Source: Arenicellales bacterium (GTDB taxonomy: Bacteria; Pseudomonadota; Gammaproteobacteria; Arenicellales; Poriferihabitantaceae). From it: DNA of 64,000 bases. The notes beneath the pieces were generated by a model. That model did not search any database, was not told the origin of the DNA, and saw nothing but the letters and a program-made list of their open reading frames with translations. The DNA is taken from contig OY843749.1 of assembly GCA_963693025.1 (NCBI GenBank), positions 712,719-776,718 on the forward strand, in the 5' to 3' direction. The position numbers and the translations under genes are program-made. Of this stretch, positions 6,213 to 46,399 are shown in pieces. The stretch's first letter is position 1. Each line of letters opens with the position of its first letter.

Positions 6213-7673
6213 TCAGATGGCGAAGCGCCGGATGACGTCGGCGCACAGCGAAATCAAGCCGTCAATCCACGGCAGGATGGCGATGATGCCGAGCGCGTTG
6301 AAGGTCAGCAGCAGGCGCGCATCGAGCGGGGCGGGCTCGGCGCGCGCCGCTTCGGGTTGCTCCTCGGGCGCGTCGAAATACATCAGTTTGATGACGCGCA
6401 GGTAGTAGAACGCGCCGACCACCGCCAGCAGCACCGCCACCACCGCCACCCACACCAACTCGGCGCGAACCAGCGCTTGGATGACCGCGAGTTTGGCGAA
6501 GAAGCCGGCGGTCGGCGGGATGCCCGCCATCGACAGCATCAGAATCATCAGCAAAAACGCGACCCACGGGTTGCGCGCGCTCAGCCCTTTGAGGTCGGTG
6601 AGCCGGTCGGATTCGTGGTCGGCGCGCGTCAGGCAGAGGATGGCGCCGAACGCGCCGAGGCTCATCAGCGAATAAATCAGCACATAGAACAGCGAGGCGC
6701 TGTAGCCGTGCGCGCCGCCGCTTGCGATGCCGAACAGGAAGAACCCCATGTGCGAGATGGTGGAATACGCCAGCATTCGTTTGAGGTTGGTTTGCGCGAT
6801 GGCGATGATGTTGCCGGCGGCGACCGACAGGATGGCGAGGATGAGCAGCATCTGTTGCCAGAGCGCGAACAGGTCGCCGAGGCCGCCGGCAAGCAAGCGC
6901 ATGACCAGCGCGAACGCGGCGATTTTGGGCGCGGCGCCGAGGAACGCGGTGGTCGAGGTCGGCGAGCCGTGATACACATCCGGCACCCACATGTGGAACG
7001 GCACCGCGCCGAGTTTGAAAGCCAGCGCGACGACGATGAACACCACCGCCAGCGCGACCGCCGCGTTGTTGTGGTCGGCGCCGGCGAGCGCGGTGCGGAT
7101 GGCGGACAACTCGAGCGAGCCGGACAAGCCATACAACAGCGACATGCCATACAACAGCATGCTGGAGGCGAGCGCGCCGAGCACGAAGTATTTCATCGCC
7201 GCCTCGCTCGCCAGTTTGTCGTCGCGGTAGCAGGCGATCATCGCATACAGGCACAGCGACATTAACTCCAAGCCGAGATACAGCGTCAGCAAGTGGTTGG
7301 CGGACGCCATCACCATCATGCCGGCGACCGCGAACAAGCCGAGCACGTAGTATTCGTTGGTGAAGATGCCGCGCGCGCGGTTGTAGCGTCGGCCATAGAT
7401 GAAGGCGCCCGCGGACAGCAGGCAGACCGCGATTTTCAGCAACTTGGCGAGCGGGTCGGCGATGAACAGGTTGTTGAAGGCGGCCACCGTGCCGGCGGCG
7501 AAGTCCATGCCGCTCAGCGTTGCTGTGACCGCCAGCGCGGCGATGCTGAGCCAGTAACAAGCCGTGTCGTTGTTTTTTTTGCCCGCCACGCCGAGCACCA
7601 GAATCGCGCACGCCGCCAGCGAAATAAATATCTCCGGCAACGCGGCGGCGGCTTTTAGCGAGTCGAACGTCAT
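6213..7673 (-). CDS. nuoN: NADH-quinone oxidoreductase subunit N
   Basis: EAAMKYFVLGA, FKLGAVPFHMWVPDVYHG, KRMLAYSTISHMG. Start at 7673 gives an ATGA overlap with the nuoM stop. Confidence 0.96.
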   Translation of the reverse strand: MTFDSLKAAAALPEIFISLAACAILVLGVAGKKNNDTACYWLSIAALAVTATLSGMDFAAGTVAAFNNLFIADPLAKLLKIAVCLLSAGAFIYGRRYNRARGIFTNEYYVLGLFAVAGMMVMASANHLLTLYLGLELMSLCLYAMIACYRDDKLASEAAMKYFVLGALASSMLLYGMSLLYGLSGSLELSAIRTALAGADHNNAAVALAVVFIVVALAFKLGAVPFHMWVPDVYHGSPTSTTAFLGAAPKIAAFALVMRLLAGGLGDLFALWQQMLLILAILSVAAGNIIAIAQTNLKRMLAYSTISHMGFFLFGIASGGAHGYSASLFYVLIYSLMSLGAFGAILCLTRADHESDRLTDLKGLSARNPWVAFLLMILMLSMAGIPPTAGFFAKLAVIQALVRAELVWVAVVAVLLAVVGAFYYLRVIKLMYFDAPEEQPEAARAEPAPLDARLLLTFNALGIIAILPWIDGLISLCADVIRRFAI

Positions 7674-9160
7674 GGCAGTTTGGAGACCGCGATATGCGCG
7701 AGCAGGTTGTCGATGGTGGCGTGCATGACTTCGAGCAGCGGGTTGGGCCACACGCCGACCAGCAGAACCAACACAGCGAGGATGGACAGGAAGGCGGTTT
7801 CGCGCACATCGACATCGGCGAGCGCGGCGACTTGCTCGGAGGCGACCGCGCCGTAGATGACGCGCTTGACCATCCACAGCGTATACGCGGCGCCGAAAAT
7901 CAGCGTGAGCGCGGCGATGGCGGCGACCCAGGCGTTGACCCGAAAGGCGCCGAGGATGACCAGGAACTCGCCGACAAAACCCGAAGTCGCGGGCAAGCCG
8001 GCGTTGGCGAGCGCGAACAGCACCACGAAGCCGGCGAACACCGGCATGGGCGTGGCGATGCCGCCGTAGGTTGCGATCATGCGCGAGTGCAGGCGGTCAT
8101 ACAACACGCCGACGCACAGGAACAGCGCGCCGGAGATGAAGCCGTGGGAAATCATCTGAATCATCGCGCCCTCGGCACCGTGGGCGTTGAAGAGAAACAA
8201 GCCGAGGGTGACGAAGCCCATGTGGGAGATGCTGGAATAGGCGATGAGTTTTTTCATGTCGCGCTGCGCGAGCGCCACCAGCGCGATATAAACCACCGCG
8301 ATGAGCGACAGCGTAATCATCAGCCACGCCAACTCGATGCTGGCGTCCGGCGTGATGGGCAGGCTGAAGCGGATGAAACCGTAGCCGCCCATTTTCAGCA
8401 TAATCGCCGCGAGAATCACCGAGCCGCCGGTGGGCGCTTCGACGTGCGCGTCCGGCAGCCAGGTGTGCACCGGGAACATCGGCACCTTGACCGCGAAGGC
8501 GGCGAAGAACGCCAGGAACAACAACACCTGCGGGGCGAGCGCGAGTTTCAGGGCGTGGTAGTCGAGGATGCTGAAACTGCCGCCAGCGGCGTTGTAGAGG
8601 TAGAGCAACGCAACCAGCATGAGCAGCGAGCCGAGCAGGGTATACAGGAAAAACTTGATGGTCGCGTAGATGCGGTTGGGTCCGCCCCAGATGCCGATGA
8701 TGAGGAACATCGGAATCAGCATCGCCTCCCAGAAGAGGTAGAACAAGACCGCGTCGAGGGCGGCGAACACGCCGATCATCAAGCCCTCCATAATGAGGAA
8801 CGCCGCCATATACTGCGCCACGCGCTCGGTGATGACTTTCCAACCGGCGATGACAACCACCACGGTCAGCAGGGTGGTCAGCAGAATCAGCGGCAGGGAA
8901 ATGCCGTCAATACCGAGCGAGTAATGGATATTGAACGCGCTGACCCAAACCGCGTGCTCGCCGAATTGCATGGCCGCGGTGGCGGTGTCGAAGCGCGTGT
9001 AAAGCGGCACGCTCAACAGAAAAATCGCAACGGAAAACCCCAGCGCCAATCTGCGCGCCAACGCATCACGACGCTCGCCTTCCCCCCGCCCGGCGGCGAC
9101 GACCAACACACCGGCGAGGATGGGAAGCCAGATTAGCCAACTGAGCAAGTTATTTTCCAT
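7670..9160 (-). CDS. nuoM: NADH-quinone oxidoreductase subunit M
   Basis: FYLFWEAMLIPM, KVPMFPVHTWLPDAHVEAPTGGS, KKLIAYSSISHMG. Confidence 0.97.
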   Translation of the reverse strand: MENNLLSWLIWLPILAGVLVVAAGRGEGERRDALARRLALGFSVAIFLLSVPLYTRFDTATAAMQFGEHAVWVSAFNIHYSLGIDGISLPLILLTTLLTVVVVIAGWKVITERVAQYMAAFLIMEGLMIGVFAALDAVLFYLFWEAMLIPMFLIIGIWGGPNRIYATIKFFLYTLLGSLLMLVALLYLYNAAGGSFSILDYHALKLALAPQVLLFLAFFAAFAVKVPMFPVHTWLPDAHVEAPTGGSVILAAIMLKMGGYGFIRFSLPITPDASIELAWLMITLSLIAVVYIALVALAQRDMKKLIAYSSISHMGFVTLGLFLFNAHGAEGAMIQMISHGFISGALFLCVGVLYDRLHSRMIATYGGIATPMPVFAGFVVLFALANAGLPATSGFVGEFLVILGAFRVNAWVAAIAALTLIFGAAYTLWMVKRVIYGAVASEQVAALADVDVRETAFLSILAVLVLLVGVWPNPLLEVMHATIDNLLAHIAVSKLP

Positions 9161-9178
9161 ACGCGCCGCCCTTCGCCC

Positions 9179-11140
9179 TCACAACCAAACAAAAAAGGTG
9201 ACGAAACAGAACAAGCCGACGATCATCGCGAAGGCGTAGTGGTAGGTGAAGCCGGTTTGGAGGTTGCGCATGATGCCGGAGCAGGCGCGCACCAGGCGGG
9301 CGGAGCCGTTGACGATGATGCCGTCTATGAGACCTGCGTCGATGCGCGTTGACAGCATGTTGCCGAGGTTGAGCGAGCCTTTGGCGAAGGCGGCTTGATA
9401 GAATTCATCGAAGCCGTATTTGTTTTGCAAGATTCGATGGAGGGGTCCCGCGGCGGCGGCGATTTTGGCGGGTAGTTGGGTGTTTTTGCAGTAGCCATAC
9501 CAGGCGAGGCCGATGCCGGCGACCGCCAGCCAGAAGGGGGCGGTGAGCACGCCGTGCAGTATCGCCGACAGGATGAGGTCGAAGCCGTGTTTGCCGTGAT
9601 GGACGGCTGCCAATTTCGCCACGACATCGTGTTGCGGGTTGACGTGGATGGCGTTGCCGAAAAACGCGCCGTTGATGACCGGCTCGAAGAACATCCAGCC
9701 GGTTATTACCGACGGAATCGCCAGCGCAACCAGGGGCCAAATCACGACGCCGGGGGATTCGTGCAGGCGCTCGCGGGTGTGTTGGTCGGAGCGGTTGCTG
9801 CCGTGGAAGGTCATGAACAGCAGCCGGAACGAGTAGAAAGCGGTGACAAACACGCCCAGCAGCACCGCGACATACGCGTAGCCCGCGCCCCACACATCGC
9901 TGTGGCGCGCCGACTCGATAATCGCGTCTTTGGAAAAGAAGCCGGCGAACGGCGGGATGCCGGCGAGCGCCAACGAGCCGACCGCGGCGGTGATGTAGGT
10001 GATGGGCATGATTGCCCTGAGCCCGCCCATTTTGCGCATGTCCTGTTCGTGGTGCATGGCGATAATCACCGAGCCGGCGGCGAGGAACAGCAGCGCCTTG
10101 AAGAAGGCGTGCGTGCCGAGGTGGAAGATGGCGATTTCATAGGCGGACGCGCCGAGCGCGACGGTCATGTAGCCCAACTGCGAGAGCGTCGAATACGCCA
10201 CCACGCGCTTGATGTCGTTCTGCACCAAGCCGACCAGCGCCATGAAAATCGCGGTGGTTGCGCCGATGACCAGCACCACCGACAGCGCCGTCTCGGACAA
10301 TTCAAAGAGCGGCGACATGCGCGCCACCATGAAGATGCCGGCGGTCACCATGGTGGCGGCGTGAATCAACGCCGAGATGGGCGTGGGTCCCTCCATGGAG
10401 TCCGGCAGCCACACGTGCAACGGCACCTGCGCCGACTTGCCCATGGCGCCGACGAACAGCAGCAGGCAGATAATCGTCATCCACTTCCACTCGCCGAACA
10501 CGCCCGCCACGGTTTGCCCGGCGGCGGCTTCGGCGCCGGCGAACACCGCGCCGTAGTCGAGCGAGCCGAACAGATACAGCACCGCGGCGATGCCGAGCAG
10601 AAAGCCGAAGTCGCCCACGCGGTTGACCAGGAAGGCTTTGAGGTTGGCGGCGATGGCGCTGTCGCGTTCATACCAGAAACCGATTAGCAGATAGGACACC
10701 AGACCGACCGCTTCCCAGCCGAAGAACAACTGCAGGAAGTTGTTCGCCATCACCAGCATCAGCATGGCGAAGGTGAACAGCGCGATGTAGCAGAAGAAGC
10801 GCTGATAGCCGGGGTCGTCCGCCATGTAGCCGATGGTGTAGATGTGCACCATGAGCGAGACGAAAGTGACCACGATCATCATCATCGCGCTCAACTCGTC
10901 GATCATAAACCCGATTCGCAACGGCACGCCGCCGCTCACCGCCCAGGCGTAGATGGTGTCGTTGAACAGGTTGCCGGCGCGCACATCGGCATACACCACC
11001 AGCGACAGCACGAAGGCGGCGCCGACCCCGGCGATGGCGACCGAATGCGCGCCGCGGCGACCGATGACTTTGCCGAACAATCCGGTGATGACGGCGGCGG
11101 CGAGGCAGATGAGCGGGATTGCCAGATAGATGTTTCTCAT
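9179..11140 (-). CDS. nuoL: NADH-quinone oxidoreductase subunit L
   Basis: [57 protein letters not shown]. Confidence 0.97.
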
Positions 11141-11442
11141 CCCTTGAGCGAGTCCAATTCTTCGACGTTGATGGTGCGGCGGCTGCGGAACAGCACGATG
11201 AGGATGGCGAGGCCGATGGCGGATTCCGCCGCCGCCACGGTCAGAATAAAAAACACGAACACCTGTCCGGCGGTGTCTTGGAGGAAGTGCGAGAAAGCCA
11301 CGAAGTTGATGTTGACCGCGAGCAGCAATAACTCGATGGACATCAGCAAGATGACGACGTTTTTGCGGTTGAGAAAAATCCCGACCACGCTGAGGGCGAA
11401 CAGGATGGCGCCCAGGGCGAGATAGTGCGAGAGCGGAATCAT
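11137..11442 (-). CDS. nuoK: NADH-quinone oxidoreductase subunit K
   Basis: [27 protein letters not shown]; 101 aa. Confidence 0.97.
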
Positions 11443-12080
11443 GGCGCTTCGTCCGCGCGGTTTTCGCCTTCGCCTTGGCGGGGCGACGGTTTCATTTTGA
11501 CGATGCGCAGGCGGTCATCGCGCCGCGTTCGCACTTGGTCCGCCGGGTCGATGCGCTTGCCGTCCGGGCGCGGTCGCATGGTCAGCGCGATGGCGGCGAT
11601 AATCGCCACCAGCAGAATGACCGCGGCGATTTCAAACGGATAGACATAGACGGTGTAGAGTTGCTCGCCGAGTTCGCGCGTGTTGCTGTGGCCAAGCGCC
11701 TGCGCCGGCGGGTTGGCGTATTGTTGCGGCGAAAACGAGCGCATCAATACGAGCGCGAGTTCGACCACCAGCAGCACCGCGATGACGCTGCCGACCGGCA
11801 GGTATCGGGTGAAACCGGCGCGCATTTCCGCGAGGTTGACGTCCAGCATCATCACCACAAAAAGGAACAACACCATGACCGCGCCGACATAAACCAGCAC
11901 CAGCACGATGGCGAGGAATTCCGCTTCCAGCGTAATCCACACGCACGCCGCGCTAAAAAACGCCAACACCAAAAACAACGCCGCCTTGACCGGGTTGCGA
12001 ATGGTCACCACCATGGCGGCGGCAAAAATCAGCGTTGCGCTGAAGAAGTAGAAGGCGAATTGGAGGAAGGTGATGCTCAT
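11439..12080 (-). CDS. nuoJ: NADH-quinone oxidoreductase subunit J
   Basis: [44 protein letters not shown]. Confidence 0.96.
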
Positions 12081-12535
12081 CCGTATACCGGGGGACCCGT
12101 ATAGGGGATATATTTTTTGGCGGGTGGTTCCGGGTAATTTCCAAGCCTTACATCTTCGTCTGACGGCATATGTTTTACGCTGAAAGGAAACCGCTCCGGG
12201 TCGCCAACATGTCCATCGAGGGCTTGTTGAAGAGTAAAGACTTCCGGGTTGCAGTGGGTTGGTAAACTGGGGATGACTTTCCGCGCTTCGGCTTCGCTGT
12301 CGTATTGGTGCGCGTAGAGTGGATGAGTCGCCCAGTGAAATCTAATGTCATTAATGTCAATCTCGTAACAATCAAGTTGAGCCATAAAATCGGGGTCGTC
12401 TTCGGGGGCAACATCGCCATCGTCACCAATATCGACACACGCTTGGTCATAAAAAGGTTTTGACATGTAATATACGCCGTTAGCGAGATCCATATCCTCG
12501 GCGTGGATAACATATTTTACGGTTGAATCAGGCAT
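12077..12535 (-). CDS. Acidic hypothetical protein (152 aa), passenger between nuoI and nuoJ
   Basis: Lower-GC ORF with a GGAG RBS upstream; its stop overlaps the nuoJ ATG (ATGA). No recognisable motif. Confidence 0.7.
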   Translation of the reverse strand: MPDSTVKYVIHAEDMDLANGVYYMSKPFYDQACVDIGDDGDVAPEDDPDFMAQLDCYEIDINDIRFHWATHPLYAHQYDSEAEARKVIPSLPTHCNPEVFTLQQALDGHVGDPERFPFSVKHMPSDEDVRLGNYPEPPAKKYIPYTGPPVYG

Positions 12536-12556
12536 GGTTTTACTCCGGTTGGTGGT

Positions 12557-13990
12557 TTATTCGTCCGGCAGGTTTGCCGATTTCAATTCTTCCTGAAACG
12601 CTTCGCCGGTGCGCGGATGCGCGAGTGGCGGCAGTTTGGGTTCTATGCCGCGAAAATACTCGTCGATGGAATACATAATCAAGCGCCTGAATTCTGTTTC
12701 ACCGCGTTTGAATGTCCCCGCTTGCAAGATGCACTTTCTCACCGCCGGCGTATCCCATTTTTTCAGCGTAATGAAAACACCCACCGCCGCCTTTCTGCTT
12801 GCGATGACGCCTGAAAAAGCCCGCAGCGAATCAATGGCGGGTTTGCCGCCTTTGACTTGGGAGATGCATAATTCCTCCTTCTTTTTGGCGCCATAAATCA
12901 GCGCGCGGCCATCGATGCCGCCGTCGCCGCGTTGCACCTTGTTCGGCGCAAAGCCGGGGATGCGCGTAACCGCCCACTTCTCAAAATCAAACGGATTGTC
13001 TTGCGCAAAATGCATTGCCCCTTTCAAGTCTTTCGGCACACCCGCCAGATTGATACGCATATCTTTCATGCGCTCACGCCGCACTACTTCGATGGCGTAA
13101 GCGGAAATATCAATGCCAATCCAGTTGCGTTTTAAGGAATGCGCCGCTTCAATGGTTGTGCCGCAACCACAAAACGGATCCAACACCAAATCGCCTGGGT
13201 TGCTGCTCGCCATGATGATTCGTTTCAGCAAAGCGAGCGGTTTTTGCGTGGGATACCCCAAGCGTTCCGCGGCCATGGCATTCAAGGCTTTCAAGTCGGT
13301 CCATACATCCATTGGCAGTTTCGTTTCTGTCGTTGCTCTGGTTGCACTCTTTTTCCCGGTACCCAGTCGCCTCAAAACTTCGGGGGTTCGTGGCGCCATG
13401 ATGTCCTCGCCATTAAATATAAATTTTTGGCTTTTGCTATAAAACAAAAGGATGTCGTGCTTTCTTGCGTAATGCTTCTTGCCCGCACCGCCGGTTTGGT
13501 AATGCCATATCACTTCATTTTTAAAATGTTTCTTCCCAAAAACCTCATCCATCAAGAGTTTCAAGTAATGCGACGCGGTCGGGTCGCAATGCAAATAGAT
13601 GCTGCCGGATTTTTTCAACAAACGGTGCATCTCGGCGATGCGCTGCGCCATATAAGATAGATACGACAACATTCCACTGCCATCGGGATAGATTTCTCTG
13701 AATGCGCGGATGGCACGATGCGCCGGGTGGTCGATAGCGTTTTCGATTAAGCGCACGCGCTGCTCCGCCGCCTCATCCCATTCCCAAGTATCGGTAAAAG
13801 CCGTCAGTTGCGCGATGTCTTCGTTGTCGCCGCCGTTGCGCTGCGTGCCGAAGATGATGTTGTAGTCCGCCTTGCTGTTGAAAGGCGGGTCGAGGTAAAT
13901 CAAATCGACGGCGTTGTCGGGCCACTCGCGCATCACCTCCAAACAATCGCCGTAATACAGCGTGTTTTTTTTCATTTCCATTTCCATCAT
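12557..13990 (-). CDS. N4/N6 DNA methyltransferase (beta-type order) with C-terminal Mrr-like domain, passenger between nuoI and nuoJ
   Basis: [14 protein letters not shown] (motif IV), [17 protein letters not shown] (motif I), and C-terminal DGGIDG...QVKGG. Start ATG 13990 (alternatives 13987/13981/13975) behind AAGGGG. Confidence 0.9.
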   Translation of the reverse strand: MMEMEMKKNTLYYGDCLEVMREWPDNAVDLIYLDPPFNSKADYNIIFGTQRNGGDNEDIAQLTAFTDTWEWDEAAEQRVRLIENAIDHPAHRAIRAFREIYPDGSGMLSYLSYMAQRIAEMHRLLKKSGSIYLHCDPTASHYLKLLMDEVFGKKHFKNEVIWHYQTGGAGKKHYARKHDILLFYSKSQKFIFNGEDIMAPRTPEVLRRLGTGKKSATRATTETKLPMDVWTDLKALNAMAAERLGYPTQKPLALLKRIIMASSNPGDLVLDPFCGCGTTIEAAHSLKRNWIGIDISAYAIEVVRRERMKDMRINLAGVPKDLKGAMHFAQDNPFDFEKWAVTRIPGFAPNKVQRGDGGIDGRALIYGAKKKEELCISQVKGGKPAIDSLRAFSGVIASRKAAVGVFITLKKWDTPAVRKCILQAGTFKRGETEFRRLIMYSIDEYFRGIEPKLPPLAHPRTGEAFQEELKSANLPDE

Positions 13991-14007
13991 GCCGTCCCCT
14001 TTTGCGC

Positions 14008-14499
14008 TCACCGATACGGCGCGTCTTGTTTGCGCGCGGCGGCTATTTCGGTTTCGTATTGGTCGCCGATTTCCAGCAGGCGTTGTTTGTCGATCCAGCG
14101 CTCGTGTTCTTCTTCCATGTGGAACTCGTGGATGTCGGTCATGACGATGGAGTCCACCGGGCAGGCTTCTTCGCAGAAGCCGCAGTAGATGCACTTGAAC
14201 AAATCAATGTCGTAGCGCGTGGTGCGGCGCGTGCCGTCGGCGCGTTCTTCGGAGTCGATGGTGATCGCCAGCGCCGGGCAGACGGCTTCGCACAGTTTGC
14301 AGGCGATGCAGCGCTCTTCGCCGTTGGGGTAGCGGCGCAACGCGTGCAGGCCGCGAAAGCGCGGCGATTTCGGCGTCTTTTCCTTTGGGTACATGATGGT
14401 GATTTTGCGGCTGAACAGCCGCCGCCCGGTGACGCGCATTCCCTTGCGCAACTCCTTGAGCGTGAAGGTTTTGTAAAGTTGTTTGATGTCGATTCCCAT
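14008..14499 (-). CDS. nuoI: NADH-quinone oxidoreductase subunit I
   Basis: Two 4Fe-4S motifs: [12 protein letters not shown] and [12 protein letters not shown]. Confidence 0.97.
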
Positions 14500-14545
14500 G
14501 ATAAGTCTCCGGTCCCGGTTGACAGGCGCAGCTCAGCAATCCATC

Positions 14546-15592: not shown

Positions 15593-15627
15593 CGCGTCAT
15601 TGCCTCAGCGCCCTCGCCCCGCAGCCG

Positions 15628-18096: not shown

Positions 18097-18097
18097 G

Positions 18098-19456
18098 TCA
18101 GGCGGCGTCGGCGGCGGTGGTTGCGGCGGCGTTGGTTGCCGCCGTAGCGGGCGCAACCTCAACCTCGGCGGCGCGGATTTTCGCTTCAAACTCATGCCGA
18201 AAATGTTTAAGAAAACTCTGCACGGGCCACGCCGCCGCGTCGCCGAGTGCGCAGATGGTGCGCCCCTCGATGCGGTTGGCGACGTCGAGCAGGGTGTCGA
18301 GGTCGCGCTCGGTTGCGCGTCCGGCGTTGATGCGGCGCAGGATGCGGAATAGCCAGCCGGTGCCTTCGCGGCACGGCGTGCACTGGCCGCAGGATTCCTC
18401 AAAGTAAAAGCGCGCGAGCCGTTCCAGCACCGCCACCATGTCGGTGGTCTCGTCCATCACGATGACCGAGCCGGCGCCGACCGCGGAGCCGTGTTGTTGC
18501 AGCGAGTCGTAGTCCATATTCGCGCGCATGATGATGTCCGCCGGCAACACCGGCACCGACGAGCCGCCCGGTATGACCGCCTTGAGTCGGCGTCCGCGCC
18601 ACACCCCGCCTGCCATTTCCAGCAGGTCGGCGAACGGCGTGCCCATTTTGACTTCGTAGTTGCCCGGCTTTTCGACATGACCCGTAACCGAGAAAATTTT
18701 CACCCCGCCGGCGTTCTCCACGCCGAGGTCGCGGAACCATTCGCCCTTCATCCAGTCGCCGTTGGCGCGCAGAATCGCCGGCACCGAGGCGAACGATTCG
18801 GTGTTGTTGATGGTGGTCGGTTTGCCATACAAACCGAAGGCCGCCGGGAACGGCGGTTTGAAGCGCGGCAAACCCTTCTTGCCTTCGAGCGATTCGAGCA
18901 GCGCGGTTTCCTCGCCGCAAATATAGGCGCCGGCGCCGAGGTGGTTGTGCAAGTCAAAATCAAAACCCGATGCGAACAAATCGGCGCCCAGCAACCCGGC
19001 GTCATACGCTTCGCGCACCGCCGCCTCCATGCGCTCATACGGCTCCCAGAACTCGCCGCGAATATAGTTGTAGCCGACCGTCGCGCCCATCACATAGCCG
19101 CCGAGCGCCATACCTTCAATCAGCGCGTGCGGGTTGTAGCGCAGAATGTCGCGGTCTTTGCAAGTGCCCGGCTCGCCCTCATCGGAATTGCACACCACAT
19201 ACTTCTGCCCCGCCGCCGCGCGCGGAATAAAATGCCACTTGATGGCCGCCGGAAACCCGGCGCCGCCGCGCCCGCGCAAGTTGGAAGTCTTGAGCGCCTC
19301 GATAATCAACGCCGGCTCAACCTGCTCGCGCAACACCTTCTCCAACGCCTCGTATCCGCCGGTTTTGCGATAGGCATCCAGCGTCCAGCAGCGGTCATGC
19401 TCGCGCGGCAGGCATACGTCGGCGCAGGCGCGGAGGGTGGCGGGCTGGTTAGTCAT
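18098..19456 (-). CDS. nuoF: NADH-quinone oxidoreductase subunit F
   Basis: LRGRGGAGFP, NSDEGEPGT, GAGAYICGEETAL, ESCGQCTPCREG, TICALGDAA. Confidence 0.97.
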   Translation of the reverse strand: MTNQPATLRACADVCLPREHDRCWTLDAYRKTGGYEALEKVLREQVEPALIIEALKTSNLRGRGGAGFPAAIKWHFIPRAAAGQKYVVCNSDEGEPGTCKDRDILRYNPHALIEGMALGGYVMGATVGYNYIRGEFWEPYERMEAAVREAYDAGLLGADLFASGFDFDLHNHLGAGAYICGEETALLESLEGKKGLPRFKPPFPAAFGLYGKPTTINNTESFASVPAILRANGDWMKGEWFRDLGVENAGGVKIFSVTGHVEKPGNYEVKMGTPFADLLEMAGGVWRGRRLKAVIPGGSSVPVLPADIIMRANMDYDSLQQHGSAVGAGSVIVMDETTDMVAVLERLARFYFEESCGQCTPCREGTGWLFRILRRINAGRATERDLDTLLDVANRIEGRTICALGDAAAWPVQSFLKHFRHEFEAKIRAAEVEVAPATAATNAAATTAADAA

Positions 19457-19458
19457 TG

Positions 19459-20619
19459 TTAATATTCAACTTGAGTAAAAACAATATCATCAGCTATGGC
19501 AAATTCAATATAGCGCAATGGCGCACATTCACCTTGGTTGTTTCCATTAAACGAATTGAATTCCGTGATTAAATTTTGATATATGTCCGTCATCTTATTT
19601 TCTATTCGCTTGGCTAATAAAACCGGTACGATATCGCTCGGCAAATTCGGCACATAATACTGTTTCACCCAGTCAATATAACGTTGAATTTGATTCAAAT
19701 TGTCAGCGCTTGCTTCTTCACACTTTAATTCGATCGGCAATATGCTACGATGGCTTTCATGTTCCACCGAAAGCATTACATCTATTCTTTGCATTCCAAC
19801 ACCACACGAAACTTCATTGCCAATCCATTCAATTTTCCCTTGCCCGGCCACTGCAGCATCTAAACTGTGATTGATGTTTCTCCCTAAATTTTGCGTGAGA
19901 TATGCTTGAAGATGCACTTCAAATTTCTGTCCGCACGCACTTTTTTCCAACATTCGAGGAAGTATATTAATACACTCCTGACGACCGGCATATTCGGGTT
20001 GTGATTCATCAATGCAAATAATTTTCTGGTTTTCCAGTTCAAAAGAAATTTTGTTTTCGCAATCCAATTCCCGTCGCTGATTTTTGTTGCGGATAAGGTG
20101 TAGCAACCGTTCGGCTTCGTACGTTGTGATCATCGTGTTTCCACGCACTCCTTTTAATTTGCGGTAAATCAAAGACCACAACATTTGACATGGTGATGAT
20201 AGGCATTTAATTTCATCCAACGCCTCCCATTCGGTCACGCCATCAGCATACACATCAAGCGGCGAAATTTGCACTCTAAAGGTCAAAGATTTTCCAAGAT
20301 CTGACGTAAGGTATTGTGCAGCATCGTAATTATCCAAAAAAGCCGAATCGCTTATGACTTCAAACACGCCAAAAAATTTCCCTTCTCGAATTCCATGCTC
20401 GAAATTTTGTTGCAAATAAAAAATAACTTGGTCGCCTTTCCGGACTCTATTTGCATCCGCAATCATTCCAACTAGGTTTCGTTCTTTTGAATAGTGAAGA
20501 GATGACTGGCGACGGTTATTAAAATCAATCGCTTCTTCTTTTGCCCCGGTGCCAGCAAACAAATACTCCAAGTGAAACTTGAAAGTGCGCCAATCAACAA
20601 TAAAAACATGCGTTGTCAT
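19459..20619 (-). CDS. Putative nuclease: EVE/PUA-like N-terminus plus PD-(D/E)XK (NucS/Mrr-like) C-terminus, passenger between nuoE and nuoF
   Basis: AT-rich. VRKGDQVIFYL...FFGVFEV resembles EVE; RIDVML...PIELK...NQIQRY is a PD-(D/E)XK signature. Start ATG 20619 overlaps the upstream MTase stop (ATGA). Confidence 0.7.
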   Translation of the reverse strand: MTTHVFIVDWRTFKFHLEYLFAGTGAKEEAIDFNNRRQSSLHYSKERNLVGMIADANRVRKGDQVIFYLQQNFEHGIREGKFFGVFEVISDSAFLDNYDAAQYLTSDLGKSLTFRVQISPLDVYADGVTEWEALDEIKCLSSPCQMLWSLIYRKLKGVRGNTMITTYEAERLLHLIRNKNQRRELDCENKISFELENQKIICIDESQPEYAGRQECINILPRMLEKSACGQKFEVHLQAYLTQNLGRNINHSLDAAVAGQGKIEWIGNEVSCGVGMQRIDVMLSVEHESHRSILPIELKCEEASADNLNQIQRYIDWVKQYYVPNLPSDIVPVLLAKRIENKMTDIYQNLITEFNSFNGNNQGECAPLRYIEFAIADDIVFTQVEY

Positions 20620-21422
20620 TTTTTCTTGAATACCAGCAAATATTCGTGTTTGAAAATGTAAAATCCGCCGACCAATGCACGGTACCGCCACAAATTTTCC
20701 TGGTTTAACTTTGCACGATTGCCCGTCATGTTTTTTACCAATATGCTTTTTAGTATCAAGTCAGGTGCGCGTTTTAATGTTTCTTGCATCAAATTAAAAC
20801 CGAGTGGCACCCATTCGCTGTTGGTATATTTGTCGCCAATGACAACGGCAAGGTACCGCCCGGATGCCAGCAGGTCGATAAAATTTTCTATTACATCGCC
20901 AAATTTTTCGGCGAAACAATCAACACTTTCTATGTTGGATAAGTCTTTTTTGTCGTCACTAAACTTAATAATATTGTGATAAGGAGGATGCAAAATAATT
21001 AGATGCACTTGTTTTTTGTTGATTTTATTTAGCACTTTTGCCACTTTTGTTGTGGCGTAAGGGTTCGTGCTGTCAGCAACAATTACCGTGGATGAAACTC
21101 CACCACGGGCGGTTTCTTGTGTCACATTTCCTCGGGCAATTTTGGCAACTTCCGGATTTAACTCAACCCCGATTCCATGCCGGCCAAGCCGCCGTGCTTC
21201 TATCAGCGAAGTGCCATGCCCAAGAAATAAGTCCAATACCACATCGCCTTTTTTGGTAAACCGCCGCATGAGTTGATTGGGAATTTGCGGAATAAAATTC
21301 CCGTGATATGTATTGTTGTGCACACCGGATTTATCGCGTCCGCCCAGCAACCATAAACTATCGGTAAGAATGTCGTCGTATTGCTTCCATTCTTTTAAGT
21401 TTAAGTCATTTATCTTGGCCAT
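20616..21422 (-). CDS. N4/N6 DNA methyltransferase (motif I before motif IV), passenger between nuoE and nuoF
   Basis: HGNFIPQIP, VLDLFLGHGT (motif I), LHPPY (motif IV variant). The AGGAGG RBS lies inside the last nuoE codons. Confidence 0.85.
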   Translation of the reverse strand: MAKINDLNLKEWKQYDDILTDSLWLLGGRDKSGVHNNTYHGNFIPQIPNQLMRRFTKKGDVVLDLFLGHGTSLIEARRLGRHGIGVELNPEVAKIARGNVTQETARGGVSSTVIVADSTNPYATTKVAKVLNKINKKQVHLIILHPPYHNIIKFSDDKKDLSNIESVDCFAEKFGDVIENFIDLLASGRYLAVVIGDKYTNSEWVPLGFNLMQETLKRAPDLILKSILVKNMTGNRAKLNQENLWRYRALVGGFYIFKHEYLLVFKKK

Positions 21423-21427
21423 TTTTA

Positions 21428-21940
21428 TTAACCTCCTAACTCATCCAAAATTTCATTCACCCGCGTCGGGGTCAGGTCTTCGTAATAATCGCGCCCGATT
21501 TGCAACATCGGCGCGCCGGCGCAGGCGGCCAGGCATTCGGCTTCTTTGAGGGTAAATTGGCCGTCGGCGGTAGTTTCGCCGAAGCCGATGCCGAGTTTGG
21601 TTTTGAGGTGGGCGACGACTTCATCCGAGCCGCGCAGCATGCAGGAGATATTGGTGCACACCGAAATTTTGTGCTTGCCGACCGGCTTCAAGTCATACAT
21701 CGTGTAAAAAGTCGCCACCTCCCAGGCGCGCACCGGCGGCACGCCAATCACCCCGGCGACGCATTCAATCAACTCGGCGCTCAGCCAGCCGTGTTCATCC
21801 TGCGCGATGCGAAGCGCCGCCAACAACGCCGACTGGCGCTGGTCGGGCGGATACTTCGCCAGTTCGCGGTCGATTTCGGTGAGGGCGGCGGGGGATAGCA
21901 TGGTGGCGGGATGACTGAATCGGTTCGGGTGGTTGTTCAT
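21428..21940 (-). CDS. nuoE: NADH-quinone oxidoreductase subunit E
   Basis: VATFYTMY, VCTNISCMLRG, ECLAACAGAP 2Fe-2S ligands. Start at 21940 or 21901. Confidence 0.95.
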   Translation of the reverse strand: MNNHPNRFSHPATMLSPAALTEIDRELAKYPPDQRQSALLAALRIAQDEHGWLSAELIECVAGVIGVPPVRAWEVATFYTMYDLKPVGKHKISVCTNISCMLRGSDEVVAHLKTKLGIGFGETTADGQFTLKEAECLAACAGAPMLQIGRDYYEDLTPTRVNEILDELGG

Positions 21941-22017
21941 CCTGCGAGAACGGGTGTTGGGTGGGGAGTCCCCGCATTCGGAAAGGCGGCATCTGCGCGA
22001 TGTTTGCCGGTGACTGA

Positions 22018-22206
22018 CTAACTCGCCGGTATCTCGCCGGCCGCCTCCGCTTCTGCCTTTTCGCGTTTCGCTTTTGCTTCGTCCTCGCGGTCGCGGTCCA
22101 GTTGTTTGACAGCGAAATGTGCAAACACATACATAGATATCAAAGCGGCAATAAGGGAAAGGGGAACCGCTGCGATGAGGATGGAATACCAGAGCGAGTC
22201 GGTCAT
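22018..22206 (-). CDS. Small single-TM hypothetical protein (62 aa), passenger between nuoD and nuoE
   Basis: MTDSLWYSILIAAVPLSLIAALISMYVFAHF followed by a charged tail; ATGA overlap with the upstream ORF. Confidence 0.6.
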   Translation of the reverse strand: MTDSLWYSILIAAVPLSLIAALISMYVFAHFAVKQLDRDREDEAKAKREKAEAEAAGEIPAS

Positions 22207-22481
22207 GACGATTTCTCCTTGTGGTTGATGAGGTGCCAAATTTTTGCGAGCAAGCCGAAGAATAACACAAGCGACACGAAAAATAAAACAGCCCCCCACC
22301 CGAACATGCTGATGCCGGTCGTCTGCAATGCGATGTCGATGCCGGCTGCCGGCGATTCCGGGGCGCGCTGCATCAGCAACAAGCCGGCGATGCCGCCGCC
22401 AACCACAAGCACAGTGGCAAACGCCCCCATCATCAAGCGCGAGAGTAGCGTGATGACCTCTTTTTCTTCGTCGGTCAGCAC
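22203..22481 (-). CDS. Small two-TM hypothetical protein (92 aa), passenger between nuoD and nuoE
   Basis: GTG start 13 nt after the nuoD stop; two hydrophobic segments. Confidence 0.6.
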   Translation of the reverse strand: MLTDEEKEVITLLSRLMMGAFATVLVVGGGIAGLLLMQRAPESPAAGIDIALQTTGISMFGWGAVLFFVSLVLFFGLLAKIWHLINHKEKSS

Positions 22482-22494
22482 CGCTTAAACTGCC

Positions 22495-23748
22495 TCACCG
22501 GTCAATCTCCCCAAACACAATATCCTGCGAGCCGATGATGGCGACCATGTCGGCCAGCATGTGGCCCTTGGACATTTCGTTGAGTGCGGCTAGGTGGGCG
22601 AAACCGGGGGCGCGGATTTTGCAGCGGTAGGGTTTGTTGGCGCCGTCGGACACTAAGTAGATGCCGAACTCGCCCTTCGGATGTTCGATGGCGGCGTAGG
22701 CTTCGCCGGCGGGGATGCAATACCCCTCGGTGAACAATTTGAAATGGTGAATCAGCGATTCCATGTCGCCCTTCATCGCCTCGCGCGAAGGCGGCGCGAG
22801 TTTGCCGTCGTCGGTCATCACGGGTCCGGGGTTGGCGCGCAACCATTCGATGCACTGGCGGATGATTCGGTTGGACTGGCGCATCTCCTCGACGCGCACC
22901 AGGTAGCGGTCGTAACTGTCGCCGTTGACGCCGACCGGGATGTCGAAATCCATTTGCTCATACACCGCGTAGGGTTGCTTCTTGCGCAAATCCCATTCCA
23001 CCCCGGAGCCGCGCAACATCGGACCCGAAAATCCCAGCGCCATGGCGCGCTCCTTTGACACCACGCCGATGTCCACGGTGCGCTGCTTCCAGATGCGGTT
23101 GTCGGAGAGCAGGGTTTCATACTCGTCCACATAACCCGGAAAACGCTCGGTGAAGGCTTCGATGAAATCGAGCAGCGAGCCTTCGCGGTCGGCGTTGCGC
23201 TCGCGCGTCTGCGCCTCGTCAAAGCGCTCGTTGACGGCGTGTTGGGGCATGGCGTCGGGCAGGTCGCGGTACACGCCGCCGGGGCGGTAATAAGTCGCAT
23301 GCATGCGCGCGCCGCTGACCGCTTCGTAGCAGTCCATCAGGTCTTCGCGCTCGCGGAAGCAATACAAAAACACCGTCATCGCGCCGACATCCAACGCATG
23401 CGCGCCGAGCCACAAGCAGTGGTTGAGAATGCGCGTAATCTCGTCGAACATCACGCGGATATACTGCGCGCGCAACGGCGGCGTGACGCCAATCAGTTTT
23501 TCGATGGCGAGCACGTAGGCGTGTTCATTGCACATCATCGAAACATAATCCAGCCGGTCCATATAACCGATGCTCTGGTTATACGGCTTGGACTCGGCCA
23601 GCTTCTCGGTGGCGCGATGCAGCAACCCGATATGCGGGTCGCAACGCTCAATGACCTCGCCGTCCATCTCCATAATCACCCTGAGCACACCGTGCGCGGC
23701 GGGATGCTGCGGTCCGAAGTTCATGGTGTAGTTGCGGATTTCAGGCAT
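22495..23748 (-). CDS. nuoD: NADH-quinone oxidoreductase subunit D
   Basis: [46 protein letters not shown]. Confidence 0.97.
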
Positions 23749-23765
23749 TGTTAATCGCTTGGTTT

Positions 23766-24224
23766 TTAATCGCCGTCGCCACGACCGATTTTGTTCCACG
23801 CTTCTTTGAATTCATCTTTCTCGTAAGTATCAGGCCGCTTCGGATTCCTACGCCTCTGCGCCTCCAACCAGTATGCGCGCTGGCCGCCCTTGTCCCGGAC
23901 GGCATTATCTTCGACCTCTTTGGCGGTCATAACAAATGCGCTTGGCTCATCCTCTGCCACGGCGTTGGTCAGAACGATCCAGAAGTCGCCCATGACTTTT
24001 TCAAGCGAAGTGCCAATAGAAACCGCGTTTTTCCCGGACAAGGTTTTCACTTGAATGCCAAGCATTCTTTTGCCGGTTTGGTTATACGCCACGATATCAA
24101 TCCCCTTTGCGTTGCGCGCGGTCGGCATCACATTCCAGCCCAGCAGTGAAAGTTTGTAGCAAGCGTAATATAGCCCTACATTGCCGACGATTTGCGAGGA
24201 CAGTTTGTGTGGTGTCTTCTTCAT
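23766..24224 (-). CDS. Small PD-(D/E)XK-type putative nuclease (152 aa), passenger between nuoC and nuoD
   Basis: [12 protein letters not shown]...KGIDIVA...GIQVKT pattern; ATG overlaps the nuoC stop (ATGA). Confidence 0.65.
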
Positions 24225-24829
24225 TTTTCCGCGCCGCCCCCAACCGCCTTCCCAATCGTACGCGGCACCAACACACGCGGCTCAATCGTCACCGGCTGAT
24301 AAATCACCCGCCCCTGCTCCTCGTCGTAGCGCATTTCCACCTGTCCGGAGAGCGGGAAATCCTTGCGGAACGGGTGGCCGATGAAGCCGTAGTCGGTGAG
24401 CAGGCGGCGCAGGTCGGGGTGGCCGTCGAAGAGGATGCCGAACAGGTCGAAGGCTTCGCGTTCATACCAGTTGGCAGCCGCCCATATTTCCACCACCGAA
24501 TCCACCGTCGGCGGATTGGCGTCGTCGTCGAGCGCAACCCGCAGGCGCAACCGCGCATTGTTGTGCAGCGACAGCAAATGATAGACCACCGCAAACCGCC
24601 CGCCCGCCCACGCACCGCCCCCTTCGGCGCCCCAACTCGAATAATCAACCCCGCACAAATCGATCAACGACTCAAAGCGAGTCGCCGGGTCATCCCTCAA
24701 CAACGCACAAACTTCCTTAATCCGCCCCGGCGCAATCTCGCAAGTCACCTCGCCCAACGCAACCGACTGCGAAAGCAACGCATCGCCCAGTAGGTCGGGC
24801 AAGCGGTCGTTGAGTTGGGATGGGTTCAT
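24221..24829 (-). CDS. nuoC: NADH-quinone oxidoreductase subunit C
   Basis: [50 protein letters not shown]. Start 24829 overlaps the upstream MTase stop. Confidence 0.96.
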
Positions 24830-26439
24830 GCGATACACCGCTGAAAGATGCCGGGCGCTTCGGAAACCATTAGGTCTTCTTGCAATGGCTGACCGGTGCG
24901 GGGATGGGCGAGTGGTGGCAGGTTTGGCCTGATGCCGGTGAAGTGCTCTTCGACCGACCACATCACCAGGCGGTTGAATTCGCTCGCGCCTTGTTTCAGT
25001 GTGCCGGCGTCGGCGATGCATTTTTTAACCGTTGTCGTGTTCCATTTTTTTAGCGTGATGAACACGCCGACCGACGCGTATCCACCGGTGAGTTGGCTGG
25101 TGAATGCGCGAATTGAATCGGCGCTTGGCGTGCCGCCTTTTACTTGGGCGATGCAAATTCCGTCCTCGTCTTTCGGCGTGCTTAACAACCCCGCCCAGCC
25201 GTCGATGCCGCCGTCGCCGACTTGCTTGTTGTTGGCAACGAAACCGGGGATGCGGTGAATCGCCCACTTCTCAAACGCGAACGGTTGATTGGCCGCCATG
25301 TGAATCGCCGTTTGCATGTCGGTCGGCACGCCGTCTATTTTGAACGTCACGTTTTGCAGCCGCTCTTTTTGTATCACGTCCAGCGCATACATCGAAATGT
25401 CAATGCCGATAAAGTCGCGCTTCAACTTCATCGCCGCTTCCACGGTCGTGCCACAACCGCAAAACGGGTCAAACACCACATCGCCTTTGTCGGACGAGGC
25501 TTTGATGATGCGCTCCAGCAAGGCAAGCGGCTTTTGCGTGGGGTAGCCCAGATTTTCGCCTTTCCCCCGCACGGCATTGATGTCCGTCCACATATCCTGA
25601 ATCGGAACGCCTTCCGCATCATCAAGGTATTTCTTATACCGAAAGGGGCTGGTTGGTGTGGATTGAACCAGTAAACCATCATCAAACTTTTTTTGCATAT
25701 TGGCTTTGGTAAACCGCCACGCTCGGGTGATTCCATGAAATTCGTAAGGCTTGTTTCCGCCCGCTTCATTCGTGCACGGCACCGTTCTATATCTGCCTTT
25801 TTTATCTTCGTGTTTATATGCATTATCCATATACTCATGTGAATACTCGGTAAACTGCTTGTTGTATTTTGTGCCGCTCGATTTTGCATACCATAAAATC
25901 ACATCGTGCACTCTGCCCATTTGTTTGGTTGCCAAATTGTGCGTGTCCTGTTTTCTTTTCCAAACGATTTCATTGCGAAAGTTATTCACCCCGAACACTC
26001 CATCGAGAATCATCTTCAAGTAATGCGAAGCGGTCGGGTCGCAATGCAGATAAAGGCTGCCGGTGTCTTTCAGTGTGCGGTGCATCTCGTTGATGCGGTC
26101 GGCCATATACACCAAATAAGCGAGCATGCCGGTGCCGCTTTCATAAAACGAATCCAGTGCGAGAACCGCCTTGCGGGCGCGATAATCAACCGCTTTTTTA
26201 ATTTCGGCGATGCGCTCGGCGGTTTTCTCGCTCCACTCCCACGTGTCGGTGAACGCAACCATTTGCGCGAGGTCTTTGCGCCTGACCGTGTCGGTTTTGG
26301 TTTTCTTATTGCCGAATAAAATGTTGTAATCGGCGTTGGAGTTAAACGGTGGGTCGAGATAAATCAAGTCAACGCAATCATCGGGCCAAGCCCGCATCAC
26401 TTCCAGACAATCGCCGTAGTAAAGCGTGTTTCGTTTCAT
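24826..26439 (-). CDS. N4/N6 DNA methyltransferase (beta-type order) with C-terminal Mrr-like domain, passenger between nuoB and nuoC
   Basis: [36 protein letters not shown]...QVKGG. ATGA overlaps at both ends; paralog of 12557-13990. Confidence 0.92.
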
Positions 26440-26936
26440 GCGGGCGACACTGGGGACGCAGTGCGCGCAATCGTATTAGTCTTCTTAATCTTCTTCTGCA
26501 ACTGCAAAATCCCGTAAATCAGCGCCTCGGCGGTGGGTGGGCAGCCGGGGACGTAGACGTCCACCGGCACGATGCGGTCGCAGCCGCGCACCACCGAGTA
26601 GGAGTAGTGGTAGTAGCCGCCGCCGTTGGCGCACGAGCCCATGGAGATGACCCATCTGGGCTCGGGCATTTGGTCGTATACGCGGCGCAGCGCCGGCGCC
26701 ATTTTGTTGGTCAGCGTGCCGGCGACTATCATCACGTCGGACTGCCGCGGGCTGGGGCGGAAGAGGATGCCGAAGCGGTCGAGGTCGTAGCGCGACGCGC
26801 CCGCTTGCATCATTTCCACGGCGCAACAGGCGAGGCCGAAAGACATCGGCCACATCGAGCCGGTGCGCGCCCAGTTGATTAACTCATCCAGTTTCGCCGT
26901 GGCAAAACCTTCCCGCAAGGTTCCTTCGAGAGCCAT
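26436..26936 (-). CDS. nuoB: NADH-quinone oxidoreductase subunit B
   Basis: [39 protein letters not shown]. Confidence 0.97.
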
Positions 26937-26942
26937 GTTAGA

Positions 26943-27299
26943 TTACTCCCACTCGAGCGCCCCTTTTCGCCATTCGTAGATGAAGCCGACCACCAGAACG
27001 GCGAGGAAAATCATCATCGCCCAGAAGCCGAACGCGCCGATTTCATCGAGCACGATGGCCCAGGGAAAGAGAAACGCAATCTCAAGATCAAAAATAATGA
27101 ACAGAATCGCCACCAGATAGTAGCGCACATCGAATTTCATCCGCGAATCCTCGAACGCCTCAAAGCCGCATTCGTAGGGGGACAGTTTGTCGTCATACGG
27201 CTTGTGCGGCGCAAGCACTTTGCCGGCGCTGATGGCGACGATGCCGACGCCCAAGCCGACCGCGATAAAAAGCAGGATTGGAAAATAGTTGGCTAGCAT
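26943..27299 (-). CDS. nuoA: NADH-quinone oxidoreductase subunit A
   Basis: [44 protein letters not shown]. Confidence 0.96.
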
Positions 27300-27432
27300 A
27301 TGACTCAAGGCTCCCCCGGCGGCGCGGCGCCGGCAAAACAACGGCGTTTCAATCGAGCAAGTCTATTTCCCGACGGCGTTTCAGTCAAGGACTTGTTTGC
27401 GGCGCAACCCCGGTGAAAACGCCCGCCCGCCC

Positions 27433-30212: not shown

Positions 30213-30286
30213 AGTGGTTGTGAATGCCGCCTACGCAGTGGCGCTTTTGGGGGCGCTTGACGATTAGATTTGCGCCCTTTACTCAA

Positions 30287-45741: not shown

Positions 45742-45744
45742 GTG

Positions 45745-46318: not shown

Positions 46319-46399
46319 TTTGGGAGGGGCGTTGTCGTGCTAGCATACTCGCGTCGTGCCGACGACCATCCCACTTAATCCACCGGCGAGGAACACGCA

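Follow-up and report, generated by a model that had tools for sequence, protein, structure and literature searches.

We analysed a 64,000-nt stretch of DNA (the window: positions 712,719 to 776,718 of contig OY843749.1, assembly GCA_963693025.1, an Arenicellales bacterium), in which the nuoA-N operon for respiratory Complex I carries, between its own genes, eight additional open reading frames (ORFs) that we call passengers P1 to P8. Passengers and nuo genes together make up a minus-strand string of 22 co-directional ORFs that runs from 27299 to 6213. All 14 nuo genes are full length and follow the canonical order on one strand, with 60-98% identity to relatives, and the eight passengers occupy five of the junctions between them: B-C, C-D, D-E, E-F and I-J. 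Each cassette consists of one or two bare ORFs, placed exactly between cistrons in the orientation of the operon and without a mobility gene of its own. Intercistronic gaps nowhere exceed 78 nt, and ATGA overlaps of start and stop codons are present at 26436-39, 24826-29, 24221-24, 22203-06, 20616-19 and 12077-80, in addition to native overlaps at J-K, K-L and M-N. The passengers have a G+C content (GC) of 0.40-0.56, as against 0.54-0.67 for the nuo genes; at third codon positions (GC3) the values are 0.37-0.64 and 0.72-0.89, P3 standing apart at 0.75. The sequence-only reading of this stretch had described an intact set of 14 nuo genes with co-directional inserts at five junctions, lower in GC, several of them joined by ATGA overlaps, without promoter-sized gaps and free of transposases and terminal inverted repeats (TIRs); the ORF map, the base composition (P3 being nearly host-like in GC3) and the comparison of flanking repeats with shuffled controls bore this out. 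Its count of five DNA-modification or nuclease genes among the eight inserts also holds (P1, P2, P5, P6 and P7), the call for P2 being the weakest.

In the direction of transcription, the string begins with nuoA (26943-27299, 118 aa) and nuoB (26436-26936, 166 aa). The B-C junction is filled by P1 (24826-26439, 537 aa), a fusion of methyltransferase and Mrr-like domains according to Pfam and PADLOC, with an ATGA overlap at each end; both P1 and nuoC (24221-24829, 202 aa) start within such overlaps, the first of which is reached by a C-terminus of NuoB about 6 aa longer. P2 (23766-24224, 152 aa), a small protein of the Mrr-like PD-(D/E)XK type by a weak Mrr_cat_2 match and its family motif, separates nuoC from nuoD (22495-23748, 417 aa). 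At D-E lie P3 (22203-22481, 92 aa), which starts with GTG and has two transmembrane (TM)-like segments, and P4 (22019-22206, 61 aa), with one TM-like segment and a charged tail; nuoE follows (21428-21940, 170 aa). The E-F junction contains P5 (20616-21422, 268 aa, GC 0.42), a Type II DNA methyltransferase by PADLOC and Pfam, and P6 (19459-20619, 386 aa, GC 0.40), which by predicted fold and motif combines an EVE domain with a PD-(D/E)XK nuclease of the NucS/DUF91 type. Beyond them come nuoF (18098-19456, 452 aa), which lacks its own Shine-Dalgarno sequence, nuoG (15628-18096, 822 aa), nuoH (14546-15592, 348 aa) and nuoI (14008-14499, 163 aa). The I-J junction holds P7 (12557-13975, 472 aa), a paralog of P1 with methyltransferase and Mrr-like domains, and P8 (12077-12535, 152 aa), an acidic orphan whose gene overlaps nuoJ through ATGA. 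The string ends with nuoJ (11439-12080, 213 aa), nuoK (11137-11442, 101 aa), nuoL (9179-11140, 653 aa), nuoM (7670-9160, 496 aa) and nuoN (6213-7673, 486 aa). A gene of the D-Ala-D-Ala ligase family (5036-6196) follows 16 nt past nuoN, and the same neighbour is found in a relative (L086, 13373-13482); since this gene is close and co-directional, the transcription unit may reach beyond nuoN.

Passenger proteins

P1 and P7 share 49% identity. Both contain an N6_N4_Mtase domain (Pfam, E = 1e-48 to 1e-49) and a C-terminal Mrr_cat-like domain, whose match scored 24.2 bits in P7, above the Pfam cutoff of 21, and 19.9 bits in P1, just below it. In the methyltransferase domain motif IV (DPPF) precedes motif I (FxGxG), the order of the beta class, and its closest solved relatives are M.RsrI, MboIIA and CcrM. 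The E...GDGGIDG...QVK motif of the Mrr-like domain is at least 95% conserved among 122 homologues. Like Type IIG/IIC enzymes, P1 and P7 thus have methyltransferase and nuclease-like domains in a single chain; the classic architecture of those enzymes is nevertheless ruled out, because the methyltransferase belongs to the beta rather than the gamma (Eco57I/MmeI-type) class and the nuclease-like domain is C-terminal. The family is large and present in multiple copies in metagenome-assembled genomes (MAGs) of sponge symbionts. Its members include gp42 of Mycobacterium phage Dori (L181), encoded between the lysis cassette and the integrase gene, and a protein of Mesorhizobium pMLa (L182), both with a C-terminal GDxGxDG...SVKGG domain. 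Outside nuo, copies of the fusion were seen after a thiamine pyrophosphate (TPP) enzyme gene, between malic enzyme and an ATP-binding cassette (ABC) transporter operon, before tag and after an aminotransferase gene. At the malic-enzyme/ABC-transporter locus it occurs in two genomes in opposite orientations (L082, 8001-9452; L084, 6001-7422), which implies independent insertion or inversion.

P5 matched N6_N4_Mtase in Pfam and MTase_II in PADLOC (E = 5e-101), and it carries the S-adenosylmethionine (SAM)-binding and xPPY motifs of a Type II methyltransferase, as VLDLFLGHGT and HPPY. The structural model of P6 (mean predicted local distance difference test score, pLDDT, of 81) has an N-terminal EVE fold that matches PH1033, MJECL36 and THYN1, and its C-terminal part is predicted to fold as an EndoMS/NucS-type nuclease, with D280...E297-x-K299 (D...ELK) invariant among homologues. 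As in Type II restriction-modification systems, a PD-(D/E)XK nuclease here adjoins a methyltransferase in a conserved pair: P6 was paired with a methyltransferase in every homologous locus examined (L170-L174), and the P5-P6-like pair recurs in these loci, which include other phyla, with the same 4-nt overlap. Its neighbours are dnaA-dnaN in Patescibacteria and, on another large contig, ilvA. The pairs are 60-76% identical in protein (60-68% for those of Patescibacteria and Zixibacteria), and P5 is 75-76% identical to the methyltransferase of the pair in L170 and L171. No conserved flanks of the cassette beyond the ORFs were found by cross-genome comparison, and in a homologue search P6 was essentially absent from plasmids and phages. 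In the window, P5 is preceded by AGGAGG at the extreme end of nuoE, 2 nt separate the P6 stop codon from the start of nuoF, and the GC of the pair is 0.40 versus about 0.62 for the host. P5 and P6 thus resemble a Type II restriction-modification pair with putative methylation-blocked cleavage; given the N-terminal EVE domain, a reader of modified bases, cleavage may instead be modification-dependent. The pair is a recent import of a cassette also found in unrelated phyla.

P2 gave a weak match to Mrr_cat_2 only (E = 0.009). Its family, however, keeps a GxD...IQVK core of the same kind as the Mrr-like core of P1 and P7, and UniRef names some members PD(D/E)XK endonucleases. Homologues with 52-62% identity are solitary genes in many phyla, and one with 52% identity sits at the same C-D junction in L001; no reader domain was found in P2 by Pfam scan, so that it consists of a solitary Mrr-like core. 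P3 and P4 matched nothing in Pfam or NCBIfam, and their status as genes is backed by their TM-like segments alone; P4 overlaps P3 through ATGA and has a good Shine-Dalgarno sequence. It is weakly similar (E = 0.004) to antisense small ORFs in the E-F gap of L001, with which it may form a family of small membrane peptides. That gap (9368-9998, 630 nt) contains two or three antisense small TM ORFs of about 42 aa each and no sense-strand gene. P8 has an isoelectric point of 4.4 and falls into no family of Pfam, NCBIfam or PADLOC; its model, which has a confident core (pLDDT ~95, residues 70-110), found no structural neighbour in the PDB. It is represented by 7 clusters among 1.84 billion proteins, and a homologue follows the methyltransferase-Mrr gene at I-J in L083.

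Variable cargo in a clade of sponge symbionts

We searched for relatives of the operon with NuoF, taking one genome per species. The closest relatives, at 83-84% identity, are MAGs of sponge symbionts that bear the labels Arenicellales, Ca. Poriferihabitaceae and Ca. Spongiihabitans. All nuo genes were located and every junction was measured in 169 loci, and sequences longer than 300 nt between neighbouring nuo genes were counted as inserts. The clade of the window, defined by a NuoF tree and a concatenated F-G-H-I tree, consists of the window (WIN), L001, L002, L003, L004, L083, L086 and L089, and all eight members have at least one insert. Among about 150 other gammaproteobacterial loci only two do, L005 and L078, a contrast much larger than chance would give; compact operons include those of the sister lineages L006, L007, L008, L009 and L090, the last being the one further close relative that a NuoF scan of metagenomes produced (the remaining matches were compact controls).

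The cargo differs from member to member. At I-J, methyltransferase-Mrr genes are found in L001, L083 (followed by the P8 homologue) and L086, and L003 has another N6/N4 methyltransferase there. A methyltransferase-Mrr gene occupies B-C in L089, and an uncharacterised 444-aa ORF does so in L002, which carries a different N6/N4 methyltransferase at E-F. Eco57I-like methyltransferases lie at D-E in L086 and L089 and, outside the clade, in L005. L001 has the P2-like ORF together with a 196-aa ORF at C-D and the 630-nt insert at E-F, and a bona fide GmrSD Type IV enzyme is encoded at F-G in L004. Across the clade six junctions are thus occupied (B-C, C-D, D-E, E-F, F-G and I-J), and of the roughly 13 distinct cargo units that we tallied, at least 8 encode DNA methyltransferases or restriction-type nucleases. 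In none of the 169 loci was an insert found at A-B, at G-H or within J-K-L-M-N. Decayed remnants of methyltransferase or nuclease genes were not detected in the D-E gap of the window, the E-F gap of L001 or the H-I, I-J and J-K gaps of L002. The sequence-only reading had proposed that relatives be compared for variable cargo at the nuo junctions, and such cargo is what we found, with methyltransferase and nuclease genes differing at six of them; the arrangement is neither ancestral to Gammaproteobacteria nor widespread, which would have spoken against that reading, as the ~150 compact gammaproteobacterial operons show.

Two further observations concern individual loci. In L078, a distant gammaproteobacterium, the I-J gap (15297-15974) contains a RelB-like antitoxin ORF, a hint that this junction is permissive more widely. 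In L083 the 3' end of nuoF (~1500-1900), ahead of nuoG, contains tandem repeats of about 102 nt whose copies are ~82% identical, and the protein is thereby lengthened to 575 aa.

Since the window comes from a metagenome-assembled contig and the GC of P5-P6 is very different, chimeric joins in assembly or binning might have placed foreign low-GC genes in the operon. This is scarcely conceivable, because independent assemblies of other samples show these inserts with identical boundaries, and because the reading frames meet seamlessly at the junctions, where start and stop codons overlap. The B-C insert has both boundaries identical at the nucleotide level in the window and in L089. The stop codon of nuoB has been lost in the window, and NuoB therefore runs about six codons further, to the ATGA.

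The inserts appear to differ in age. At I-J the methyltransferase-Mrr proteins of L083, L086 and L001 are 76%, 71% and 66% identical to that of the window, and the corresponding NuoG identities are 71, 73 and 66%. At B-C, the L089 protein is 70% identical to P1 and NuoC 73%. The Eco57I-like methyltransferases of L005 and L089 share 73% identity, NuoE 73% and NuoF 79%. These older inserts are intact across 15-35% protein divergence. Their divergence is close to that of the faster-evolving nuo genes, so they have long resided, undamaged, in the operon; for the B-C and I-J inserts, long-term retention fits the sequences better than a transient refuge would. Presence also varies: among eight contigs sharing the NuoF 90% cluster of the window, P1 and P7 were each present on six, P3 on four, and P2 and the P5-P6 pair on only two each, counts that derive from protein clusters and in which absences are soft evidence. 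In a tree of methyltransferase-Mrr proteins, copies from nuo branch among copies from elsewhere, so the genes are still moving or being replaced between loci; here we rely on terminal groupings only, the bootstraps of deep nodes being unusable because of the rooting.

A distribution of this kind might arise simply because some nuo junctions tolerate ORFs, and be rich in methylases merely because no other mobile genes are so common in sponge symbionts, with no logic of defence, addiction or shelter. Inserts do occur only from B-C through F-G and at I-J, never at A-B or in the tightly overlapped J-K-L-M-N block; cargo that does not look like defence exists (P3, P4, P8, the 444-aa ORF of L002 and the 196-aa ORF of L001); and the same families adjoin many other housekeeping genes. 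The clade also belongs to an ecological group, the sponge symbionts, for which Horn et al. (2016, PMC5099237) and Slaby et al. (2017, PMC5649159) report enrichment in defence genes, restriction-modification genes among them; genomes of this group hold methyltransferase and restriction genes in large numbers. We nevertheless regard such passive accumulation as unlikely. It does not readily account for the share of methyltransferases and restriction-type nucleases in the cargo tally, for the intactness of old inserts through such divergence, or for the non-nuo loci L081, L082, L084, L087 and L088, where no methyltransferase or restriction Pfam family was found among the neighbours of the fusion gene.

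Entry and expression of the passengers

None of the five inserts in the window is flanked by direct or inverted repeats or target duplications beyond those seen in shuffled sequences. Direct repeats in the flanks reach at most 8-11 nt, a length that shuffled sequences also give and far short of the >30 bp of long target duplications; an 8-nt CGCATGAA is found at both ends of P1 and is short enough to be due to chance. Cross-genome comparison revealed no conserved sequence past the ORF ends of methyltransferase-Mrr genes. An origin as an insertion sequence (IS), a transposon or a miniature inverted-repeat transposable element (MITE) was rejected, as the nuo region contains neither a transposase gene nor TIRs with a target-site duplication.

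Repeats and mobile DNA do exist elsewhere in the window. A family of low-GC intergenic repeats of about 212 nt occurs at 1137-1540, 29764-30370, 38271-38673, 43467-43727, 45684-46320 and 63230-63574, sometimes as tandem pairs and in both orientations, with a palindromic core GTGTCCGTAAGCCGCCGC...GCGCGGCGGCAACGGACAC and the look of repetitive extragenic palindromic (REP) or MITE-like elements; a window-wide repeat search found no copy inside nuo, and the family brackets operons. A Type I restriction-modification locus (51604-57665) includes an HsdM-HsdS fusion (55758-57665) and an hsdR gene split by an IS with a DDE transposase on the opposite strand (52585-54060), the only IS in the window. 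Beside this locus lies a 340-aa ORF (57723-58745, minus strand, GC3 0.35) without a Pfam match. A 23-nt unit (CGCGGCTCAGCGATAACGCCGAA-like) is repeated six times in tandem at 47026-47163, between an isochorismatase-like gene and the next ORF. A 95-aa ORF at 34496-34783 (GC3 0.58, no Pfam match) has a 22-nt co-directional overlap with the start of argH and could be another small embedded passenger.

The free-standing homing endonuclease genes of T-even phages move by intronless homing, each being a single optional ORF between conserved genes, co-oriented with its neighbours and expressed together with them. The nuo cargo resembles them in that nuclease-type ORFs are wedged between conserved genes, optional in relatives and co-oriented. 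By this analogy, the nuclease domains (those of the fusions, P2, P6 and GmrSD) might attack naive alleles or genomes, whose repair from an insert-bearing copy would install the cassette in the junctions of conserved genes. Such spread would suit bare and mostly single ORFs that vary among relatives with no other mobility machinery, as well as the conserved nuclease motifs, the movement of copies between loci and the two orientations at the malic-enzyme/ABC-transporter locus. Unlike the phage genes, however, which encode GIY-YIG or HNH enzymes, the nuo cargo encodes Mrr-like, NucS-like and GmrSD proteins together with methyltransferases, on a bacterial chromosome and with no homing site identified. 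None of these nucleases belongs to a known homing-endonuclease family, the junctions have no recognisable target sequence in common, and the presence of a methyltransferase, fused or adjacent, points to ordinary restriction-modification specificity, with many sites in the genome rather than a single homing site. We consider homing-like selfish spread improbable.

Regarding expression, a scan of 11000-28500 found three promoter-like sites on the minus strand: a candidate sigma-70 promoter upstream of nuoA (27360-27388, TTGACT-17-TAGACT), one site in the H-I gap and one inside P7. Promoter-like and terminator-like sites in the region were at or below shuffle expectation, and no RNA families (Rfam) or tRNA genes were found in the window. 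The passengers are plausibly co-expressed with nuo, as supported indirectly by their common orientation, the ATGA overlaps, the lack of promoter-sized gaps and the absence of an excess of promoters or terminators.

Tight coupling by overlaps and long retention of methyltransferases in the operon would also be expected if they were domesticated epigenetic regulators, orphan enzymes whose dosage is tied to respiratory-chain expression and which link DNA methylation to the energy state; the solitary phage and plasmid homologues suggest that a methylase-only function is possible. We find this highly improbable, because close relatives differ in both the cargo and the junction that it occupies, several of the cargoes (EVE-NucS, GmrSD) encode nucleases or Type IV enzymes rather than regulators, and the same families occur in unrelated contexts, with nothing that ties the cargo to respiration. 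Such a tie was the stronger part of the interpretation given in the sequence-only reading, which is supported in part. Its other suggestion, defence genes sheltering in an essential operon, would be conjecture, the same families also standing beside unrelated housekeeping genes outside nuo.

A probable hotspot for promoterless restriction-modification genes

The reading that we favour, with moderate confidence, is that the nuoA-N operon of this clade is a long-lived, lineage-specific integration hotspot for promoterless methyltransferase and restriction-type nuclease genes. The passengers would be transcribed by read-through from the nuoA promoter, and their translation would be coupled through the ATGA overlaps or through the Shine-Dalgarno sequence at the end of the upstream gene. 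Downstream nuo genes would in turn depend on the passengers; nuoF, for instance, would require translation of P6, because it has no Shine-Dalgarno sequence and starts 2 nt past the P6 stop. First entry may have occurred by illegitimate or microhomology recombination. For spread and allelic replacement among co-resident relatives, the nuo flanks, which are highly conserved (within the clade NuoB is 92-98% and NuoK 93-98% identical), would probably serve homologous recombination. Retention might reflect a benefit in defence, addiction to restriction-modification and the cost of imprecise deletion in a respiratory operon.

Several observations weigh against this reading. The Mrr-like motif of P1 and P7 is non-canonical, D...(Q/S)xK, and reads SVK in the phage and plasmid homologues. 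Full-length homologues of the fusion, 39-45% identical, are solitary "methyltransferases" in actinophages and on rhizobial plasmids. Rather than as restriction enzymes, the fusions may act as orphan methylases whose DNA-binding domain derives from a nuclease. Methyltransferase-Mrr genes are also found outside nuo as single bare ORFs adjoining housekeeping genes (L081, L082, L084, L087 and L088); as both this family and that of P5-P6 occur elsewhere, the hotspot is a relative one. P3, P4, P8 and part of the cargo of relatives have no defence signature. Per-gene identity matrices, including that for the D-E Eco57I-like insert of L005 and L089, revealed no clear recombination tract in the nuo flanks. 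Co-transcription and coupling, finally, we infer from the DNA only.

Defence and restriction-modification genes normally lie in accessory islands, prophages and hotspots between operons. Additional ORFs within Complex I clusters are not without precedent: the nqo cluster of Paracoccus denitrificans and the nuo cluster of Rhodobacter capsulatus reportedly contain unidentified reading frames (URFs; Xu, Matsuno-Yagi & Yagi 1993; Dupuis et al. 1995). These are co-directional, reportedly lie at junctions that include E-F, F-G and I-J, some of which would thus be permissive in both groups, and encode small conserved hypothetical proteins; they are not known to be restriction-modification genes. Unlike them, the nuo cargo of the sponge symbionts consists mostly of methyltransferases and nucleases and varies among close relatives; in Pfam and NCBIfam scans the passengers gave matches to methyltransferases or nucleases, or none. 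In the literature we found no earlier description of nuo operons colonised by such genes.

A close parallel is with the minimal mobile elements of Neisseria (Saunders & Snyder 2002; Snyder 2007), where variable cargo, often of restriction-modification genes, lies between conserved genes without transposase, integrase or terminal repeats. The nuo inserts have all of these features, with variable cargo between the same flanks. Exchange of minimal mobile elements is explained by homologous recombination in the flanks, as we propose for the nuo inserts, and in N. meningitidis the nuo cluster is itself a hotspot of homologous recombination (PMC3787668). The nuo cargo differs from these elements in lying inside one operon, at six junctions, in being apparently promoterless and translationally coupled, and in having uncultured sponge symbionts as hosts. 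More generally, restriction-modification systems have been seen as selfish mobile elements (Kobayashi); according to Furuta et al. (2010, PMC2853133), restriction-modification genes of all types are mobile, insert or substitute without other mobile elements, and can replace one another at a single locus even when they differ in type. The mobile forms catalogued there have long target duplications, flanking inverted repeats or linkage to an integrase, none of which is seen at the nuo inserts, and the passages of that paper in which operons are mentioned do not describe insertion into one.

A bolder version of the hotspot reading, which we offer tentatively and think unlikely, would make the nuo operon an operon-embedded defence island, a heritable docking platform for promoterless single-ORF restriction-modification modules, which co-resident symbionts would exchange by way of the conserved nuo flanks. 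The as yet uncharacterised beta-methyltransferase-Mrr fusion would be the principal module and act as a one-gene restriction-modification system. The modules would be expressed along with respiration and shielded from loss, since Complex I stays translatable only if excision is precise.

In a single clade, the intercistronic junctions of one core respiratory operon have received eight or more independent methyltransferase or nuclease cargoes, some of which have persisted through deep divergence. The proposal is directly testable, since the high-fidelity (HiFi) read datasets behind the MAGs should already hold methylation kinetics. If this is a general strategy, core operons can scaffold horizontally exchanged immunity genes, and the nuo operons of these symbionts would offer a natural system for studying how translational coupling accommodates promoterless genes. 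The uncharacterised but very abundant methyltransferase-Mrr family, shared by sponge symbionts, actinophages and rhizobial plasmids, would then be a candidate single-chain restriction-modification enzyme.

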